64,000 nt of DNA from Clostridiales bacterium (GTDB lineage: Bacteria; Bacillota; Clostridia; Saccharofermentanales; DTU023), in assembly GCA_004556925.1 (NCBI GenBank), contig SFFI01000004.1:9298-73297 (forward strand), given 5' to 3'. Each line of letters begins with the position of its first letter. Position 1 is the first letter of the stretch. The position numbers and the translations under genes are program-made. The notes under the pieces are model-generated. The model saw only the letters and a program-made list of their open reading frames with translations. It searched no databases and was not told where the DNA came from. Positions 7,772-60,400 of the stretch are shown here, piece after piece.

Positions 7772-7874
7772 GACTAACCTCTTTCCATTAAGCCTTCAAG
7801 GCAATATCTTCTGTATAAAAGATATTATACTGAGCTGGCCAGGGAAAGAAAGTAGAAAGCTAGAGAAAAAGTGA

Positions 7875-7904
7875 GAAGCCGCTCATCATATGACCAGCGG
7901 CTTC
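7875..7904 (-). terminator. intrinsic terminator-like hairpin downstream of the flavoprotein remnant
   Basis: GAAGCCGCT-12 nt-AGCGGCTTC. A T-run follows on the minus strand (plus-strand AAAAA at 7866-7870), and T-rich sequence also follows on the plus strand. Confidence 0.6.
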
Positions 7905-13299: not shown

Positions 13300-13640
13300 A
13301 TGATTTTAACTATACTCAGCTCACCCATACTTTTCATTTTTCTCACAACTTGCTACTTTTGGTTGGCAAGTCCGCTAAATCAGGGATTTGCCAACCTTTT
13401 AGACGCAGTAGTATTTCAGATTTCCTAGATTTCAGACAAATCTGCAAGTAATGGATGGTTCTCGGCGCCTAAACCACCCATTACTTGCAGGTTTGCCCTC
13501 ATTAGCATCCACTTCTTGCAAATTTGCCCGGCGCCCTCTCCCATTAGCTGCAAAAATGCCCGAGAATCCGTAAAACCAAAGTACCATGCTCTCAGATCGC
13601 CACAGCTTACAAGTTGCACTTTGGTTGACAGCACCTATTA
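13300..13640. repeat. condensed copy of the modular repeat element also found at 29630-30140
   Basis: Shared modules:
- ACTCAGCTCACCCATACTTTTCATTTTTCTCAC (13314-13346)
- hairpin GGTTGGCAAGTCCGCTAAATCAGGGATTTGCCAACC (13361-13396)
- long hairpin 13442-13490
- TTGCAAA(A/T)(A/T)TGCCCG boxes at 13516-13530 and 13548-13562. Confidence 0.75.
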
Positions 13641-14757: not shown

Positions 14758-14795
14758 TGCACTGCCTCCCCAAATGGGGAGGCAGTGCTTGTTTC
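14758..14795. terminator. bidirectional intrinsic terminator between convergent genes
   Basis: GCACTGCCTCCCC-AAAT-GGGGAGGCAGTGC followed by TTGTTTC. Confidence 0.8.
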
Positions 14796-25248: not shown

Positions 25249-25625
25249 GGGGGTGAACTGGTTTCGACGGGATCGTAGAAATTAGGGAAGCGGGCAGAGG
25301 GCTCCGTGGGCCTCTTTAAAAAACGGAACAAACATTAAATGCCAACAAACCGGCACTTGCAGCTGCATAGTAATGCCTGCCATGGAACCGGACCTATCTG
25401 CGGGCCGGACCTCCATGTAAAAGAGCAGACCTTTACTCTTAGAGGTTAAAGAGTGACCCTGATGGCCTAAGCTTTGCCGCCATTTAGTATTCATGAAGCT
25501 ACCGGACACCTGCCGCCCCGCTGTTAGGCACAGGTAAAGGGGAATACTCCATATAACAGCTGCGCCCGGAGATGCCTTAATGGACATGGTTTCGGACAGG
25601 AGTTCGACTCTCCTCACCTCCACCA
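25249..25625 (+). ncRNA. ssrA: transfer-messenger RNA (tmRNA)
   Basis: 5' end GGGGGTGAACTGGTTTCGACGGG and 3' end GGAGTTCGACTCTCCTCACCTCCACCA (tRNA-Ala-like acceptor/T-arm). The internal tag reading frame ends ...AAC AAA CCG GCA CTT GCA GCT GCA TAG TAA (...NKPALAAA plus two stops). The resume codon is not resolved. Confidence 0.93.
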
Positions 25626-25630
25626 TAAAT

Positions 25631-25690
25631 AAAGAGAGCGGTCTCGCTACACGTTCGTGTTTTGAGACTGCTCTCTTTATTTGTTTTTCT
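25631..25690 (+). terminator. ssrA intrinsic terminator
   Basis: AAAGAGAGCGGTCTC-loop-GAGACTGCTCTCTTT followed by ATTTGTTTTT. Confidence 0.75.
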
Positions 25691-25739: not shown

Positions 25740-27089
25740 CTATTTCAGCGAAGCTAAAACACGGTCGAGATCGGCTGCATTGCTCGTCACATCAACTACC
25801 GGAGCCGGGAAGCCATCAGTATCGACGGCGTCGATTTGATAAGCGACGAGAGTTCCGGGGGTGAGGTCTTTCGCATCAAGATTGGTGAAGAAACGGGCAA
25901 TCAGGTCTTCTTTCATGAACTTGAGCATACCATCATCCGTCAGGAAGTCGGTGCTCTCACGGTCTTTGTAATTCCATTTCGCGACGATCCCAGCGTCAGT
26001 ACGGTTATCCACGAGGTAGATCTTGACGTTTGCATCCAGGGCTTTCTGGTTCAGTTCGCCGACCATCTTGTTGATGGCGTCGTCGGAGGGATTGGCAAAG
26101 AGAACGTAGGTCTTACCGGGCTGGTCCAGGAGCCAGACGAGCTGAGCATAGTTAATCGGATAAAGGGCGAGTTCGTCAGCATCGGCCAGTGAGGGAAATT
26201 TACTCTTCAGAGCGGCCACCTTGTCATAGCTGGCGACTTCAATCTTGTTGTCCTTGATGAATTGGAAGAGTTTCTCCAGGCGTCCTTCAAAGGCTTCCGT
26301 GATGTACTCGCGTTCGGGATTGCCTTCAGCGTCTTTGATCACTTCACCATTGGCATCTTTTTTGCTGACATATACCCCGTTGGCATCGCGGTCGACCATT
26401 TCTTCAAAAGCATAGATGATCGGGTACTTGTCACGTTCCACATCAGCAGAAGAGTTGTTTTCTTTATTGTCCTTATTGTAGAGGAAGAGGAAAGGCTCCT
26501 GTAATCTGGCTACAGTTGTCTCTTTTCCTTCGGCGTTGGTATAGGTGATAGCAGCTTCGGTGCTAGAGGGATACTCGACCCAGTCATCCAGATTATCCAG
26601 ATATTGGCTGATGATTTCGCCATACATGTAGTTGTAGTTCACACCGACATTCTCTTTGCCGTTGGTCATTCGGATGAAGGTGTTACCATCGGCCTTGTTG
26701 TCAAAGTGAAAATCATACATGTAAATTTTTTCGATGCCATAGCTTTTGGCCAGCTTCTGGACGGCGGGAGCGAGCGCACGGGTGTTGTGGCACCAGGAGC
26801 CGCTGAATTGGATCAGATAATTTCCTTCAGAATTCAGGATTTCAAGCAGGTGATCGTAATTGATGATTTCGTAAACGATCTCCTTGTCTTCGAAGGTTTC
26901 GATTTTTCCCTGGTGGTCTTCATCAGCCAGAGAATGGGCATTGTAGTCGCCATACATGTAGTCGTTCTCAAAATCGAAATCGGGGGCACTCGGCATTTTG
27001 GCTTCTTCTGCAGCCACGCTGAGGTTACCAGTAAAGAACATTCCTGCAAGGAGCAGGAGGCTGAGCAAAAAAGAAATTGTTTTTTTCAT
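25740..27089 (-). CDS. secreted thioredoxin-fold-like protein, function unknown
   Basis: 449 aa with signal peptide MKKTISFLLSLLLLAGMFFTGNLSVAAEE. The segment LIQFSGSWCHNTRALAP resembles a thioredoxin WCXXC site with the second Cys lost. The protein is acidic. Confidence 0.75.
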   Translation of the reverse strand: MKKTISFLLSLLLLAGMFFTGNLSVAAEEAKMPSAPDFDFENDYMYGDYNAHSLADEDHQGKIETFEDKEIVYEIINYDHLLEILNSEGNYLIQFSGSWCHNTRALAPAVQKLAKSYGIEKIYMYDFHFDNKADGNTFIRMTNGKENVGVNYNYMYGEIISQYLDNLDDWVEYPSSTEAAITYTNAEGKETTVARLQEPFLFLYNKDNKENNSSADVERDKYPIIYAFEEMVDRDANGVYVSKKDANGEVIKDAEGNPEREYITEAFEGRLEKLFQFIKDNKIEVASYDKVAALKSKFPSLADADELALYPINYAQLVWLLDQPGKTYVLFANPSDDAINKMVGELNQKALDANVKIYLVDNRTDAGIVAKWNYKDRESTDFLTDDGMLKFMKEDLIARFFTNLDAKDLTPGTLVAYQIDAVDTDGFPAPVVDVTSNAADLDRVLASLK

Positions 27090-27327
27090 AAGAACCTTCT
27101 TTCTTTCTTTCTTTATTCAAATTTGTTTTTGGCAAATTTGTTTCGAATCAATGCTAGACCAACTTGGCTAGACTAACTTGCACGCAAGGACTGAAGCTTA
27201 CTGTAGTTACTGCCAGCTAGTCAACTTCTCGATTGTTATCGCTTGCGCTCAAGAGCTAACACATGGATCATGGATTATGGCCCTGAGAGTTCTGAGGGCT
27301 ACCATTAGACGCTACTTAAGCCAAGAT

Positions 27328-27822
27328 CTAACACATGGGCGGAGCCTCTTCTTCAGCCGGCGCGGAACCACCATCACCACCATTGGCTGCAAAAGTAGCT
27401 TCGAGGCTGGTAAATTCTTGGTAATTCTCAAGGCTGCTCTGCTCTTCAGGGCTCAGATAGGCATCAAGAATTTCACGCGCTTCCGTGATCTTTGCGAGGA
27501 TATCGTCATCGCTCAATTCGTCGGCAATCTTGCGCTTGTCGCTGATAATTGCTGCTTTCATGGCCAGGTTGGCATAAGCTTTTTTCTTTTCCACAAACGT
27601 TTCTTTTTCGCTGACACGCTCGTCACATTTGAGATTTTTATCGAGCGCCTGCCAGTATTTTTCGGCTCTGTCGAGTTCGGCCTTGCTGGCCTCGTCATAA
27701 TGGATATCGCCCAGCTCACGTACCGCCGCATCAAAGCGGGTTACGGAGAGTTTGGCGCTCACGAAGGTCATCAGGCCGCTGACAAGAAGCAAAAGGATAA
27801 GAAACAGACTGGACTTCTTCAT
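27328..27822 (-). CDS. small signal-anchored protein, function unknown
   Basis: 164 aa. N-terminal MKKSSLFLILLLLVSGLMTFVSA, a helical charged body, and a G/P/E-rich tail ending in Cys. It lies between the transporter and the thioredoxin-like gene on the same strand. Confidence 0.65.
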   Translation of the reverse strand: MKKSSLFLILLLLVSGLMTFVSAKLSVTRFDAAVRELGDIHYDEASKAELDRAEKYWQALDKNLKCDERVSEKETFVEKKKAYANLAMKAAIISDKRKIADELSDDDILAKITEAREILDAYLSPEEQSSLENYQEFTSLEATFAANGGDGGSAPAEEEAPPMC

Positions 27823-27977
27823 AGGGACTTCCTTTCTTTGTACATTTCAATCGGACTCCGTCCTCCTGAGGGCGGAGTCCCAGGCCGATCAGTCCTTGAT
27901 AATCGGCGCTTTGAGAGAGCTTGCTCAAGTGTGTTCCATTCACCGGGTCTCTCGGGAAAAGAGCACTCATGCTCTGT

Positions 27978-29342
27978 TTACTTGTGATCCGCCTCAAATA
28001 TTGCTCGATTGAGCAGGCCGGTCTGGCTGGCCACAAGGGTAGCCGAAACATTGCAGCAGGTAACATTGTTCATAGTCCGGGCCATGTCCGAAATGCTGTT
28101 AATCGGCATCATGAGGACAACGGCGGCAATCGGCAGATTCATCGCGCTGAAAACAGCCACTGCGGAGACGACGCCAATTCCCGGGATGCCTGCGCTACCT
28201 AGAGCGAGAATCAGGGTAAGAACAAAGAGCAGGAGATAGTCCTGAATGCCCCAGGCGAGGCCGACCGCATTTTTATAGAAGATAGCCAGTAATACGGGCC
28301 AGATACAGGTGCAACCGGGCATACCGATGGTCGTGCCCAGAGGTGCTGTAAAATTCGCCACTTCTTCGTCTACGCCTACACGCTTCACGAGGGAATCAAT
28401 AGTCACGGGCAGAGTGCCAACGCTGCTCTGCGTAGTAAAAGCCGTGGCCTGTGCCTGGAAAATTTTCTTGAAAAAGCGCTTAGGACTGAGCTTCGCCACG
28501 AAACGGATGAGAATCGCATTGAAGGCATAAGCATGCAGAAAGCAGAGAAGGTAAATCAACACGACAAGGAGCAGGAGCTGCAAGAGGGCTGATCGGTCTG
28601 TGAAAAGTTTTCCGGCGGCTGTGGCTGTCAGGCAGAGCACAGCGTAGGGAGTCAAGTCGATAATAAAGGCCAGAATGCGGTAGATGATCTCCTTGCAGGC
28701 CTCTACCACGTGCTTGAACGGCAAAACTTTAGCTTCGCCCTGTTCCGACGCAACTGCGATATAGCCCAGAGCAATAGCAATGGCGCTAAAGATCACCGGG
28801 ACGATACTATTGTTGACCATATCGCCCAGCAAATTACTCGGGAAGAGATTCAGGAGCACCTGATCGAAGCTCGTCTGAACGCCCTCATAAGCGGCAAGAG
28901 TACTCTCTGACACGTTGTCAATTTCTTGAAAGATCATGGCGCCATTGTTTCCCAGATGGAAAATGGAGCCAAAAAGGATACTAAGCACAATCGCAGCAGC
29001 TGCCGAAAACATCAGCCAGAAAACAGACTTGAGGCCGATGGTGCGAATTTTTTCCTTATCGTTCAGGCTAATAAACCCTGCGATGATGGAAATAAATACG
29101 ACAGGAACCACCACGGCCTTAATAATACGGATATAAATATCTCCGATCAGACTGACCCAGGTCAGGTAGCTACCATCCGGAGTCGAAAAAACGAGACCGA
29201 TCGCCGCACCCAGCGCCATAGCCAGGAGCACTACCAGAGTCCAGTTAATTTTCTGAGAAAGCCAGGTGAGGCCTTTGAAGCACAATAATGCGATGGACAG
29301 GACAAAGATGGCCATCCAGTTAAGACTTAACAATAGATCCAA
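27978..29342 (-). CDS. dicarboxylate/amino acid:cation symporter family transporter (TcyP-like cystine symporter subgroup suspected)
   Basis: TTG start at 29342 with AAGGAGG 8 nt upstream. 454 aa, multi-pass. The motif VANFTAPLGTTIGMPGCTCIWP matches the DAACS reentrant-loop region; from memory, the GC pair recalls TcyP. Confidence 0.85.
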   Translation of the reverse strand: MDLLLSLNWMAIFVLSIALLCFKGLTWLSQKINWTLVVLLAMALGAAIGLVFSTPDGSYLTWVSLIGDIYIRIIKAVVVPVVFISIIAGFISLNDKEKIRTIGLKSVFWLMFSAAAAIVLSILFGSIFHLGNNGAMIFQEIDNVSESTLAAYEGVQTSFDQVLLNLFPSNLLGDMVNNSIVPVIFSAIAIALGYIAVASEQGEAKVLPFKHVVEACKEIIYRILAFIIDLTPYAVLCLTATAAGKLFTDRSALLQLLLLVVLIYLLCFLHAYAFNAILIRFVAKLSPKRFFKKIFQAQATAFTTQSSVGTLPVTIDSLVKRVGVDEEVANFTAPLGTTIGMPGCTCIWPVLLAIFYKNAVGLAWGIQDYLLLFVLTLILALGSAGIPGIGVVSAVAVFSAMNLPIAAVVLMMPINSISDMARTMNNVTCCNVSATLVASQTGLLNRAIFEADHK

Positions 29343-29657
29343 ATCAACAACCTCCTTATGGATTCACAAAAGATTTGCAAATGCCCGCAAATAGCCGCAG
29401 TAATTCAGCCCTACACCCCGCAATACAGAGTCTGGAAAAGAGTAGCTTTAACTGTGTGTGCGGGACTTTTTTAAAGACCAGACATATCTTACGACTGCTT
29501 CCCTAGCAACTCAACCGAATATGCAACTTTTACTACGAATTTATCCTATCGATATAATCGCAATTATCTCTTTTGAATGTAAAAGTAGGAAAAATTACCA
29601 TAAGACTTGCCAAATGCTCTGAGCAAGTCTTTTTACTCAGCTCATCCAAGTTTCTCA

Positions 29658-29867
29658 TTCTCACTCACTACACCCAACTTCAGTCAAGCCATCAAACTAG
29701 TAAGAAAATCCGGAAAGTTGAAGTATCTCGACCTTTCTCATAGCTAATCCAAGCTATTCATTTTTTCACTAGCTCATTCCGCTCCTTTCTCACTCAGTAC
29801 ATCTAACTTCAGTCAAGCCATCAAACTAGTAAGAAAATCCGGAAAGTTGAAGTATCTCGACCTTTCT
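29658..29867. repeat. two ~81-bp direct repeats, 129-bp period
   Basis: A 63-bp perfect core, AACTTCAGTCAAGCCATCAAACTAGTAAGAAAATCCGGAAAGTTGAAGTATCTCGACCTTTCT, occurs at 29676-29738 and 29805-29867. Each is preceded by an imperfect TTCTCACTCA(C/G)TACA(C/T)C(C/T). Confidence 0.85.
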
Positions 29868-29948
29868 AGCGCCTGGTGGCCTGACCATTTCTCTTCAGAA
29901 CCAGTAGGTTTGGCCTCTCTTTTTCAAAATTCCTGGATTTCGGACAAA

Positions 29949-30131
29949 TTTGCAGGTAATGGATGGGTTTGCTCTCAGAAACAGAGGCCAAATCACCCAT
30001 TACCTGCAGATTTGCCCGCGTTACCATCCACTAGTTGCAAAAATGTCCGGCGGCCCACCCATTAGTTGCAAAAATGCCCGCGATTTCAGAATTCCGAAAG
30101 TCAAGTCCGCTAAATCAGGGGTTTGCCAACC
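29949..30131. repeat. long-hairpin plus TTGCAAAAATGCCCG-box module, homologous to 13442-13562
   Basis: Stem TGCAGGTAATGGATG (29951-) pairs with CACCCATTACCTGCA (-30008). Boxes lie at 30035-30049 and 30066-30080, followed by a half hairpin ending TTTGCCAACC at 30131. Confidence 0.75.
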
Positions 30132-30722
30132 TTTTCGGCCCGGCCGGGCCAGTTTAGCAGGAGATTTTAGTTGGCAAGTTCGCCAAATTAGGGGTTTGCC
30201 AACCATTTTCTGGCTCGCATTTGCTTGGGGAGGCCAAATAATGGTTGGCAAATCGTCTAAAGTAGCACTTTGCCAACTCTTTTCGGGGCAACCCCGTGCA
30301 GGAATAGCAAAAAAAGAGTTGGCAAATCCGCCAAATCAGCACTTTGCCAACTATTTTTCAGCTCACATTTGCTTGGGGAGGCCAAATAATGGTTGGCAGA
30401 TCGTCTAAAGCAAGACTTTGCCAACCTTTTTCGGGGTAATACCATGCAGAGACAGCAAAAAAAGAGTTGGCAAATCCGCCAAATCAGCACTTTGCCAACC
30501 TTTTTCCGGCTCACATTTGCTTGGGGAGACCAAATAATGGTTGGCAAATCGTCTAAAGCAGCACTTTGCTAACTATTTTTCAGCTCACATTTGCTTGAGG
30601 AGGCCAAATAATGGTTGGCAGATCGTCTAAAGTAGCACTTTGCCAACTCTTTTCGGGGCAACCCCATGCAGGAACAGCAAAAAAAGAGTTGGCAAGTCCG
30701 CTAAATCAGGAGTTTGCCAACC
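30100..30722. repeat. tandem array of eight 35-nt palindromic hairpin units, 74-bp period, 148-bp higher-order unit
   Basis: GGTTGGCAR-N16/17-TTTGCCAAC units start at 30170, 30243, 30318, 30391, 30466, 30539, 30613 and 30688. Two loop/linker subtypes alternate. Confidence 0.9.
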
Positions 30723-30781
30723 ATTTTCAGGCTGGCAGGGCCGGATAAGCTCAATTTATGGTGGAATGTCATAATACTTTA

Positions 30782-31045
30782 TTTCACATGAATTTTGGCC
30801 AAATAATTAAGGGCGAAAGGCATGTGAAAAATGACTTCTTCAATTTCCACAGCTAATTAACAGCTAATTGGCTGAAATCTAAGGGCAGGTTTACCTGTGA
30901 AAAGTGACTTCTTCGATTTTCACAGCTAATTAACAGCTAATTAGTTGAAATCTAAGGGTAGGTTAAGCTGTGAAAAATGAATTCCGCAAGTTCCACCGGC
31001 AATTGGCTGAAATCGAATGATAGAATAGCATGTGAAAGATGAAGT
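30782..31045. repeat. ~73-bp tandem repeat, about 3.3 copies, each with a GTGAAAA...TTTTCAC hairpin
   Basis: Units begin at 30823, 30896, 30969 and 31031. The best hairpin is CTGTGAAAA-13 nt-TTTTCACAG (30895-30925). Each is followed by AGCTAATTAACAGCTAATT.GCTGAAATCTAAGGG. Confidence 0.8.
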
Positions 31046-31179
31046 TTGGGGCACACGTGTTACGCTAGCCTAGCTCCTGTCCGCTGTTCCCACATTTGAC
31101 GTGGTCGCATTTGCTGGTCCGTCCCAATCGGCTATAAGGATATAAGCAATTACGATCTGCTATAAGAACGCTAAGAACG

Positions 31180-32391
31180 CTATAAGAAGAAGAGAATTAA
31201 GAGTAAAACAAGCAGGATCAAAGCCATTATGGACAAGCCTAGGTTTTGCTTCAGGAGGTCTAGGAAACTATGCCCGGGACCAGCAGCCCCTGGCCTGGTT
31301 TCCTCCGGCTGACTAGCCTGCCAATTCATTTCTTCCCAGGCGCCCAGCCCACTTGTAGGGAGATCGTAAATGCCTGTAGCCTGGCGGTTGGTTCCCGTTA
31401 AAGTATTGATTGGAATATAGCTACCGGTGGTTTGTTGTGGGCGGCCCCAGCCCTGGGCTGTTGGAGAGGTCACTGCACCTGGGATTTGAGGGTTAAAGCC
31501 CTGAGCAATGGCATAGATCCCGGTGACCTCGCTCGCCAGCTGTGAAGGATCTGTCGCAGTCTTCCGATAAGCGCTTGTCTGACTAGTGCCGGGGTAACGG
31601 CGGTCCGGATAGAGAAGATCACTCGTTCCCGGTCCTGTAAACACTCTCCTACTTTTGATCTTTAAGCCTAGGATGGTCTGGTTATCCCGTGCGTCATAGC
31701 GGCGGGCATTTTGGAAGAGGGATTCTACGTAGGTTTGTATGGGGGATGTTTTATCTAAAACCCATTTTATATCTTCGTCGTCCAGAGCATTTGTCATGCC
31801 GTCTGTGCAGAGGAAAAAGTGGTCGCCCGCCTGCACTTGCATGTGCTTTAAGTTCTGGGCCCGCAGCTGGTGGATTCCCGGATGATTCCCCAGAAAAAGT
31901 AAAGGGCGGTCGGATGCGTCATCATTTAGGACATGGTCCTCTGTCATACGGTAGAGATAACCGTCTCGGTAGAGGTAGATGCGGCAGCTACCCACAGCCA
32001 TGGTATAGCAGGTCTCTCCTGCCAGCATAAGCAGAGCAAGCGAGCAACCCACGGGCTGGTCTGCCTGTTTGCGCAGGCGCATCTGCAAACCTTGGTCCGC
32101 CTTCGTTAAAAAATCCTGTATGTATGCGGCAAAGGAAAAACTATAAGGATCAAGGAGGCTAAAATCAGACCGCAACTCCATGAGATAAGACTGGACCACG
32201 CGGCTGGCAATATCCCCTACACCAGCTCCACCCATGCCGTCTGTCACCGCAAAAATCTGCCAATAGTCGTCGGACTCGTCAATTTTTTGCTCACGAGAAT
32301 TCAGGGTATCAGGATAGATCCGGCCCTGGAGTTGAAAACTATCTTCATTCAAGCGCCTGGCTGTACCCGCTTGTGTCATGCCACATGCCAC
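31180..32391 (-). CDS. PP2C-family Ser/Thr protein phosphatase with C-terminal transmembrane anchor
   Basis: 403 aa. PP2C motifs TARRLNEDSF, FAVTDGMGG and LCTDGMTN, then a P/T/G/Q-rich linker and a terminal LGLSIMALILLVLLLILFFL. Confidence 0.85.
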   Translation of the reverse strand: MACGMTQAGTARRLNEDSFQLQGRIYPDTLNSREQKIDESDDYWQIFAVTDGMGGAGVGDIASRVVQSYLMELRSDFSLLDPYSFSFAAYIQDFLTKADQGLQMRLRKQADQPVGCSLALLMLAGETCYTMAVGSCRIYLYRDGYLYRMTEDHVLNDDASDRPLLFLGNHPGIHQLRAQNLKHMQVQAGDHFFLCTDGMTNALDDEDIKWVLDKTSPIQTYVESLFQNARRYDARDNQTILGLKIKSRRVFTGPGTSDLLYPDRRYPGTSQTSAYRKTATDPSQLASEVTGIYAIAQGFNPQIPGAVTSPTAQGWGRPQQTTGSYIPINTLTGTNRQATGIYDLPTSGLGAWEEMNWQASQPEETRPGAAGPGHSFLDLLKQNLGLSIMALILLVLLLILFFL

Positions 32392-32439: not shown

Positions 32440-32892
32440 TTAGCGGTAATTTCTGGACAACTCACGCTCCGTCTCACGTTTCTTGATAGATTCTCGTTTG
32501 TCGTACAATTTCTTACCCTTTGCTATAGCCAATTCTAGCTTAATCAAACCTCTTTTTAAATATAATCGCAGGGGGATCAAGGTCAGGCCCTCTTGCTGCA
32601 CACTCACTGCCAATTTCCTAATTTCTCTTTTGTGCAGTAGGAGCTTCCTTTTTCTCAAGGGGTCTGGGTTAAAGCGGTTACCCTGGTCATAGGGGGAAAT
32701 ATGCATCCCTTTGATAAAGACTTCACCTTTTTCCACGGTCGCATAAGCATCTTGAAGGTTGACCCGGCCTTGACGGGCAGATTTCACCTCTGTTCCCGTT
32801 AGGACTATGCCTGCTTCAAAGCTTTCCAAAATCTCATAAGAGAATCGAGCCTTGCGATTTTGCGCTAAAACTTTTACTGATTCCTTTTTCAT
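32440..32892 (-). CDS. smpB: SsrA-binding protein
   Basis: 150 aa with [13 protein letters not shown] near the N-terminus and a basic C-terminal tail, as is typical of SmpB. Confidence 0.95.
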
Positions 32893-41959: not shown

Positions 41960-41989
41960 AAAGGGGAGCTCACGAGAGCTCCCCTTTTA
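41960..41989. terminator. bidirectional intrinsic terminator
   Basis: AAAGGGGAGCTC-ACGA-GAGCTCCCCTTTT between convergent genes. Confidence 0.85.
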
Positions 41990-60370: not shown

Positions 60371-60400
60371 GCTCTAAGTAACTCGCGAGTTACTTAGAGC
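60371..60400 (-). terminator. tyrS intrinsic terminator
   Basis: Perfect 30-nt palindrome GCTCTAAGTAACTCG/CGAGTTACTTAGAGC, followed on the minus strand by TTTTTT. Confidence 0.85.

Follow-up and report, generated by a model that had tools for sequence, protein, structure and literature searches.

A 74-bp-period array of terminator-shaped palindromes with strain-variable length in an uncultured clostridial lineage

Introduction

In E. coli, REP elements are grouped into BIME clusters, as described by Gilson, Bachellier and colleagues, and they are reportedly linked to RAYT proteins, a connection said to go back to Nunvar in 2010 and Ton-Hoang in 2012. Pneumococcal BOX elements have the modular structure boxA-(boxB)n-boxC, set out by Martin in 1992 and Croucher in 2011, and the mycobacterial interspersed repetitive units (MIRU) were described by Supply in 1997 and 2000. 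More broadly, a survey of 40 genomes identified 92 families of repeated intergenic stem-loops, 67 of which had not been described before (Cozzuto et al. 2008, PMC2267715). Here, a 64,000-nucleotide stretch of DNA from a Clostridiales bacterium (GenBank assembly GCA_004556925.1, contig SFFI01000004.1, positions 9,298 to 73,297; hereafter the window) is analysed for an array of palindromic units at 30097-30721. The repeated unit, termed H, also occurs outside the array, which is interpreted with moderate confidence as a tandemly amplified cluster of this short, dispersed, terminator-shaped and lineage-private palindrome.

Array layout and unit structure

A search of both strands of the window with the pattern GTTGGCAR-N17-TTTGCCAAC, allowing at most two mismatches, matched the array on both strands at 30170, 30244, 30318, 30392, 30466, 30540, 30614 and 30688, and also matched at 13362, outside the array. 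These 18 strand matches compare with 0.08 expected, and none of 100 shuffles reached 18. The array holds eight full units and one 5'-degenerate unit (unit 0), and an in-register repeat search returned nine copies, spaced once by 73 bp and then seven times by 74 bp, with the half unit placed at 30102-30135. An initial annotation of the region had listed eight units with two loop subtypes and two linker types in the order Y X Y X Y X X Y, which the pattern scan and direct reading both confirm, and had proposed a 148-bp higher-order repeat, a period that TRF reports over the array beside 74 and 222 bp. Its spacing of 73-75 bp was right as to a regular period, but the extra G of the X units had been counted and the units are in register at exactly 74 bp; similarly, its range of 30100-30722 holds for the array, but a further full copy lies outside it. 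Read from the sequence, the units after unit 0 run Y' X Y X Y X X Y', joined by linkers of 39-40 nt that fall into only three sequence types, X (four times), Y (three times) and Z. The parts of the array are as follows.

30097..30130, + strand: unit 0, an H unit with a degenerate 5' arm (GAAAGTCAAG for GGTTGGCAAG) and an intact loop and 3' arm (covariance model R1, 54 bits)
30131..30169, + strand: Z linker, 39 nt, with the palindrome GGCCCGGCCGGGCC (30137-30150) and the 3' end ...GCAGGAGATTTTA; resembles the 39-nt linker of the H dimer at locus L005 of a related genome
30170..30203, + strand: unit Y'1 (GTTGGCAAGTTCGCCAAATTAGGGGTTTGCCAAC), canonical and solo-like, with a 12-bp stem that includes G-U pairs
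30204..30243, + strand: X linker, 40 nt, ...CATTTGCTTGGGGAGGCCAAATAATG; further copies at 30352-30391, 30500-30539 and 30574-30613
30244..30277, + strand: unit X1 (pattern match)
30278..30317, + strand: Y linker, 40 nt, with the small hairpin CGGGGCAACCCCG (30284-30296) and an A7 tract; further copies at 30426-30465 (hairpin degraded) and 30648-30687
30318..30351, + strand: unit Y1, whose - strand hairpin is followed by T7 (pattern match, terminator scan, fold)
30392..30425, + strand: unit X2 (pattern match)
30466..30499, + strand: unit Y2, whose - strand hairpin is followed by T7 (pattern match, terminator scan, fold)
30540..30573, + strand: unit X3, in which the 3' arm TTTGCTAAC gives a G-U pair on the + strand
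30614..30647, + strand: unit X4, identical to unit Xb of strain contig L016
30688..30721, + strand: unit Y'2, of the terminal canonical type; the first hairpin with T7 on the - strand downstream of the PP2C gene

All H units share one orientation, with covariance model scores of 54-72 bits on the + strand versus 15-34 bits on the - strand, and the X and Y loops match each other in direct alignment (12 of 17 positions) and not as reverse complements. The stem common to H units is 9 bp long and reaches 12-13 bp in the solo and terminal units only. Across subtypes whose linkers can barely be aligned, the arms TTGGCAA/TTGCCAA and the loop positions C22, A24-26 and A29 are invariant or almost so. 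A T-run follows every hairpin of the array, an A7 tract (T7 on the - strand) lies ahead of the Y units, and the array region as a whole folds far better than shuffled sequences (z = -10.4 and -8.7). The small palindromes read in the Y and Z linkers had been annotated as a second hairpin whose structure is kept while its sequence changes; both palindromes are present, but one of the three Y-linker copies is degraded (30432, GGGGTAATACCAT), which leaves this claim weak.

Dispersal and lineage restriction

The core of H is 34-36 nt long and consists of GGTTGGCAAGTCC, a loop of 8-10 nt and GGRTTTGCCAACC, followed by a T-run. A genome scan with the exact pattern, covering one genome per species in 185,579 species, found a sole carrier, the closely related metagenome-assembled genome (MAG) JAQYCV01 'Clostridiales bacterium SUG1750', which has five copies at four loci by this pattern (elsewhere put at ~5 loci). 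A match in an alphaproteobacterial MAG (L001; fetched loci and contigs carry L numbers) lies inside a coding region and was rejected as chance. Copies elsewhere in the genome and in relatives, which the initial annotation had anticipated, are thus present both in JAQYCV01 and in the window, where the single copy outside the array is the following.

13362..13395, + strand: solo H unit with a 13-bp stem (-22.1 kcal/mol), followed by TTTT, between the divergent ppx and NYN promoters

This solo unit is conserved at the same site in MAG locus L004, which is syntenic with 13.1-13.7 kb of the window, and in strains L027, L040 and L041. The MAG has solo copies at three other loci, and at L005 it carries an H dimer spaced by 73 bp; the 39-nt linker of this dimer has the same kind of 3' end, ...GCAGGAGATTTT, as the first linker (Z) of the array. 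Both L002 and L005 hold H inside a common composite element of ~200 bp, as one H and as H-linker-H, respectively. H is therefore known in solo, dimer (39-nt linker) and array (nine units, 39-40-nt linkers) forms. It is dispersed as a ~46-nt unit with unrelated flanks (for example, L003 versus 13362), short T-runs stand on both sides of every solo copy, and all copies in the window and the MAG loci are intergenic.

Neither the window nor any of the fetched loci yielded further degenerate copies to the covariance model of H. Joint Genome Institute (JGI) metagenomes yielded six matches, all of them chance-like palindromes, including an ambiguous one (L010, TTGGCAAATC-N12-GATTTGCCAA; 29 bits with the covariance model) that was not counted, as it has an A-run where the H family has a T-run. 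There were zero H matches in viral contigs (pattern scan) or in plasmids and phages (distant BLAST), and H is absent from the sister-species loci L024-L026, L028, L031 and L036; relative to the window, sister-species loci are 95% identical in NYN, 80% in PP2C and ~76-82% at the nucleotide level. Within the window, transfer-messenger RNA (tmRNA) was the sole Rfam family to reach the gathering threshold; relaxing the search to E = 10 added only hits below threshold, almost all of them to generic hairpin (miRNA-precursor) models, while ARAGORN found no tRNA-like units in the array, though 74 nt is tRNA-sized. Judged from these sequence comparisons, H is a low-copy dispersed palindromic element private to one uncultured Eubacteriales/Clostridiales species group (gut-type/anaerobe Clostridia).

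Strain variation and assembly

The window DNA is part of a 123-kb MEGAHIT metagenome contig (European Nucleotide Archive (ENA) ERZ27309548, k141_191354; k = 141). In strain contig L016, which comes from another sample (ERZ27230500), the array reads 0-Y'-X-Y-X-Y' and has five full units, compared with 0-Y'-X-Y-X-Y-X-X-Y' and eight full units in the window, a difference of 3 units (~222 bp). The two arrays agree in their unit types and terminal units, and the unit order coincides at either end. As a direct tandem array whose length differs by whole units from strain to strain, the array is a copy-number-variable minisatellite, or variable number tandem repeat (VNTR). An assembly artefact is unlikely, because the longest exact repeat of the array (46 bp) is far under k = 141 and the independent assembly agrees. 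Many short-read contigs of this species do end in the surrounding gap, at other repeats, namely the 129-bp duplication (D3) and the T array described below.

Hairpin stability and transcription context

Predicted hairpins of H range from -10 to -22 kcal/mol. Solo units fold 2-3 kcal/mol better on the + strand, where TTTT(T) follows; the Y units fold better on the - strand (-16.3 versus about -12 kcal/mol), where T7 follows, and are called there as terminators by a simple terminator scan. In the run after the stem, two T never vary among 14 aligned copies and a third occurs in 90% or more of them, with a + strand tail of 4-6 T. H thus has the shape of an intrinsic terminator, a stable G+C-containing stem-loop with a U-run directly after it, with loops larger than canonical. 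These values uphold the terminator-like shape seen in the initial annotation; its suggestion of a bidirectional element stands for the Y units and falls for the solo copies, which have such a T-run on the + strand only.

The 73 nt that separate two convergent genes in L003 contain H and no other hairpin, and nothing terminator-like except the H dimer follows the feoB operon in L005. For the array, an effect of termination or insulation between the smpB-PP2C operon and an acquired cassette that includes a symporter gene is plausible, because Y'2 would place the first hairpin and T7 after PP2C on the - strand and the symporter has a promoter of its own; this promoter region lies within the cassette. 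As a separate observation, the composite element of L002 (1249-1160, - strand) contains a promoter-like TTGTAA-16-TATATT ~30 nt upstream of its solo H, from which an RNA of ~65 nt would run as far as the hairpin; the homologous composite element of L005 has lost the -10 sequence.

Genomic surroundings

The gap that holds the array (29343-31179) lies between the gene for an SDF symporter of the dicarboxylate/amino-acid:cation type (27978-29342, - strand) and that for a PP2C phosphatase (31180-32379, - strand), and smpB and a thioredoxin-like protein are also among the neighbours. As annotated, the gap is gene-free: it has no credible open reading frame (ORF), and its small ORFs are not kept between strains. 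A coding repeat was rejected, as 74 is not divisible by 3, the frame shifts with each unit and the ORFs (11-55 aa) differ between strains. Each X linker (e.g. 30234-30245) carries GGAGG-N7-ATG opening into the hairpin (MVGKSSK...), giving ORFs of 11, 16, 45 and 55 aa; in strain L016 the X-linker ORF is 8 aa, unlike the window, and these ORFs are probably fortuitous. The ~50 proteins of the window include no transposase, integrase, cas or partition gene product, and the gene tables of the relatives' fetched loci list no transposase, integrase or Y1 enzyme, so that the Y1/RAYT transposase that the initial annotation had envisaged has no candidate in either set.

GC content is 42-48% across 16-32 kb versus 49-52% in the flanks. 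There is no skew switch at 30 kb, and a reading of the region as a replication origin or terminus was rejected for this reason. The array sits exactly between the PP2C gene and module A, a separate dispersed repeat that occurs twice in the window.

29922..30083, + strand: module A, directly upstream of the array, with a long inverted repeat (29941-30018) and three direct 31-bp repeats of CAYCCAYTAGYTGCAAAAATGYCCG
13414..13565, + strand: module A again (76% identity), immediately downstream of the solo H

Module A is ~160 bp long and comprises one inverted and three direct copies (31-bp period) of CAYCCAYTAGYTGCAAAAATGYCCG, its motif being CACCCATTAGTTGCAAAAATGCCCG, with a hairpin of ~30 bp; its layout recalls, by analogy, the subterminal binding sites of a transposon end or the arm sites of an integrase. 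It was found in the window (two copies), L002, L003, L005, L024/L025, L027 (two copies) and L028, a wider distribution than that of H, as it is present in the sister species. One of the L027 copies (1667-1840) has no counterpart at the matching window site (7834-7875), and the 13-kb locus of the sister species lacks module A. Near PP2C, that species has its tmRNA gene 28-70 nt after PP2C and module A ~115 nt past the tmRNA 3' end; in L028/L036 the order MerR - module A(-) - tmRNA(-) - PP2C(-) fits inside 870 bp. In the window this interval is ~14 kb, with several genes added, and the block that runs from tmRNA to module A has the opposite orientation to that of the sister-species loci. Strain L027 is missing two ABC genes and the tmRNA gene at this position.

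Inside the block from tmRNA to module A in the window is a three-gene cassette (25741-29576) that encodes a 449-aa thioredoxin-like secreted protein, a 164-aa protein and the SDF symporter. Logan contigs L032-L035 carry a cassette of 90-93% DNA identity among wholly different genes, with no repeat modules flanking it there; the comparison suggests that the cassette moved horizontally in recent times. Two further repeats lie near H, making three other repeat types beside the array, and indel polymorphism extends to other repeats of the gap. The T array (30823-31043), unrelated to H, has 3 x 73 bp, each unit with the palindrome TGTGAAAA-N12-TTTTCACA, and the 271-bp block that holds it (30830-31100) is missing in L016, L019, L020 and L021 and present in L017, L018 and L022. 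A direct duplication with a 129-bp period (29658-29867; 81 nt, 96% identical) has no other copy in the fetched DNA, and Logan contigs L007 and L008 end inside it at 29705.

The tmRNA gene at 25249-25625 (Rfam, 145.5 bits; ARAGORN tag peptide ANKPALAAA) is followed by an inverted repeat (25627-25682), and smpB is at 32440-32892, 7 kb from it. Near-perfect inverted repeats also stand at gene ends at 14759-14788, 41960-41987 and 60371-60400 (93%, 93% and 100% complementary over 28-30 nt); from their sequence these look like the ordinary terminators of this genome, and they are unrelated to H.

Interpretation and alternative explanations

The array grows and shrinks by whole 74-bp units, as the strain difference shows. 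If it is an amplified cluster of H, the simplest cause would be that the near-identical 9-bp arms and their flanks recombine unequally or slip during replication, which would give rise to the 148- and 222-bp higher-order repeats. Each unit, if transcribed, would form a stable hairpin with a U-run and might act as an intrinsic terminator, a 3'-end-protecting structure or an insulator. The solo and X units would fit a terminator role on the + strand and the Y units (U7) on the - strand, the strand on which smpB-PP2C and the symporter cassette are read. The extra copies would probably be neutral, in a permissive, rearrangement-prone spacer near the tmRNA gene.

A number of observations weigh against this interpretation. 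The simple terminator scan does not call the + strand units, whose loops are 8-16 nt, the gene upstream of H in L002 (serS) has a canonical terminator of its own, and the solo copy at 13362, between divergent promoters, has nothing there that needs terminating. The 13-pair stem is 84% paired across 21 copies, which equals the shuffled expectation, and compensatory changes are not above shuffles. Covariation tests on 14 and on 21 copies gave nothing, and the covariation that the initial annotation had looked to for its main hairpin is thus not borne out; pairing in H is kept by sequence identity. In array units of the same type, the arms vary at 3 of 36 sites versus 23 of 112 elsewhere, a suggestive but not significant difference, and G-U cells exceed A-C cells by 21 to 12, in counts that are not independent. 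The solo orthologue in L027 has 2 substitutions in 36 nt, one that breaks the stem and one in the loop AAA, versus 30 in 495 in the surrounding spacer; because this copy diverges at the spacer rate, it gives no sign of purifying selection on structure, on few data. The H core is intact at the 13-kb locus in L004, L040 and L041. In line with the initial annotation, H matches no catalogued family in Rfam, but uncompensated stem-breaking changes, which it had held to be contrary to its case, are in part seen (the L027 orthologue and unit 0 of L016). Finally, neither termination alone nor slippage alone explains the strict invariance of the arm sequence or the same 39-40-nt length of three barely similar linkers.

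Dispersal between unrelated flanks (L003 versus 13362) would also be expected if H were a non-autonomous mobile element, REP/RAYT-like or akin to a minimal miniature inverted-repeat transposable element (MITE), inserted next to existing copies by an enzyme encoded elsewhere. Its arms can be read as terminal inverted repeats of 12-13 bp, the T-runs on both sides of each solo copy are ambiguous as duplications, and module A is present or absent at corresponding sites (L027 versus the window, and the sister-species 13-kb locus). This origin is nevertheless unlikely, given the low copy number (~5 loci in the MAG and 2 in 64 kb), the direct orientation of all units, the missing GTAG-type 5' signature, the lack of any transposase, integrase, Y1 enzyme or insertion sequence in the DNA searched, and an inter-strain difference of exactly three units inside the array, as recombination predicts; comparison of empty and filled sites (L028 and L036 for the 13-kb locus; L027 versus the window at 7.8 kb for module A) met spacers too diverged for exact boundaries, so that no clean empty site or target duplication is definable. 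The invariant arms and loop positions among barely aligning linkers, with pairing kept by identity and not by covariation, might instead point to a phased protein-loading DNA platform, in which 74 bp would be ~7 helical turns and the array a centromere-like, insulator, or architectural or regulatory complex; by this arithmetic all palindromes would lie on one face of the DNA, as the initial annotation had proposed. The sopC centromere of the F plasmid, for example, is built of 12 direct repeats of 43 bp that each contain a short inverted repeat. The L005 dimer keeps the 73-74-bp spacing, and the neighbouring T array, though unrelated, repeats every 73 bp and contains a palindrome of its own. 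However, a dimer on B-DNA would fit poorly to half-site centres ~25 bp (~2.4 turns) apart, the copies have no par, regulator or nucleoid-protein gene specifically linked to them, the five loci differ in context without any relation, both the array length and one orthologous copy vary freely from strain to strain, and invariance fits common descent as well, all of which makes a platform quite unlikely. A cas-less, enzyme-built or protein-measured system of interspaced palindromes, with units added by ruler length or bound by a phased protein filament, was considered because the 73-74-bp ruler is found in the array, the L005 dimer and the T array alongside invariant arms and barely alignable linkers; it is very unlikely, though if true it would be of wider interest, as a new kind of chromosomal array in uncultured Clostridia and not passive slippage.

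Tandem arrays of small RNA (sRNA) genes are known, cyanobacterial NsiR1 being an example, and the units could likewise be sRNA genes or modules of one long non-coding RNA, with the hairpin as terminator or protein-binding stem-loop. A -10-like AATAAT stands just upstream of each X hairpin, L002 has its promoter-like sequence ~30 nt upstream of H, the region folds well beyond shuffles and G-U pairs favour the + strand in solo copies. Such genes are nonetheless highly improbable here: the promoter-like hexamers are weak (9/12) and the L002 -10 is not kept in L005, a start site set by the X-linker -10 would fall within the 5' arm, no Rfam family matches even at E = 10, covariation is absent, the G-U excess rests on dependent counts, and a high fold z-score is expected of any palindrome array. 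An assembly artefact, or the decayed remains of an orphan CRISPR array, is a scarcely credible origin for the array, although its source is a MEGAHIT metagenome contig, many short-read contigs break in the gap, and a 34-nt partly palindromic repeat with ~40-nt spacers has CRISPR-like dimensions. Repeats of at most 46 bp against k = 141, together with the same units in the same end order in a second assembly of another sample, argue against the former; the latter is excluded by 'spacers' that are recurring sequences (X and Y linkers four and three times), repeat centres that vary more than the spacers, scattered solo copies and the absence of cas genes in the 64 kb.

An amplified cluster of a dispersed, lineage-private palindrome, if that is what the array is, would add a stem-loop family of uncultured Clostridia to the catalogue of REP, BOX and MIRU-like repeats and would offer a strain-typing marker whose length changes in 74-bp steps. 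It would also account for short-read assembly breaks between smpB-PP2C and the tmRNA-side genes, and would provide a natural series of 1, 2, 5 and 8 units for asking whether repeated hairpins insulate an acquired cassette from a housekeeping operon.

Comparison with known systems

Several other systems were compared and set aside. A plasmid-type centromere or iteron array has no adjacent partition or replication-initiator gene here. Integron attC sites were rejected, as GTTGGCA/TGCCAAC do not fit the GTTRRRY/RYYYAAC cores, a 40-nt linker is too short for a cassette and there is no integrase. Sigma-54 promoters, XerCD dif sites, parS and Rex/CRP-type operators, compared by eye, do not fit. The array does resemble F-plasmid sopC in being a direct tandem array with the same inverted repeat in each unit and a spacing of whole helical turns, but it is chromosomal, has no partition genes nearby, has arms ~25 bp apart and has copies at unrelated loci. 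Similarly, H resembles intrinsic terminators in its stable stem and immediate T-run, with the A-tract upstream of the Y units giving a bidirectional shape, but differs in its loops of 8-16 nt and in having some copies where nothing needs terminating.

The likeness to REP/BIME is closer. Like REP elements of ~35 nt, H is an imperfect intergenic palindrome (34-36 nt with a 9-13-bp stem), two subtypes alternate with two linker types in clusters that vary between strains, and effects on termination and mRNA stability have been proposed for the E. coli elements. However, REPs within a BIME alternate in orientation whereas H units are all direct, REPs number hundreds per genome compared with a handful of H loci (2 in 64 kb; 4 in the MAG), the sequences are unrelated, the GTAG/CTAC of the REP hairpin foot is missing in H (a CAGTAG lies 12 nt 3' of three solo copies) and no RAYT gene occurs in the DNA searched (64 kb plus fetched loci). 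REP/BIME membership proper thus fails on orientation, copy number and the 5' GTAG, although the initial annotation was in the right neighbourhood with its BIME/BOX analogy, as H is a dispersed stem-loop with other genomic copies and a strain-variable cluster.

As in pneumococcal BOX, a modular Gram-positive mosaic repeat in which a central module of ~45 nt is variably amplified, H is non-coding, lies near genes and has stable predicted hairpins; it differs in its period (74 versus 45 bp), in its two subtypes alternating in a higher-order repeat, in its much lower copy number and in the lack of sequence similarity. MIRU-VNTR loci share with H units of 40-100 bp at few intergenic loci, direct tandem arrays and strain-variable copy number, but MIRUs form no strong palindromes and contain short ORFs that are coupled to the genes on either side, whereas H is a hairpin with a T-run. 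H also fits the general class of the stem-loop families in the 40-genome survey, which showed such families to be frequent and for the most part undescribed, but it differs in coming from an uncultured lineage outside that survey and in its strictly periodic tandem form. By analogy, H would act most like BIME/BOX/MIRU-type repeats with terminator-shaped units, while by defining features it is not a member of those families, and the best reading of the array is that it adds one more example to the well-known families of intergenic stem-loop repeats and is not a new kind of system.

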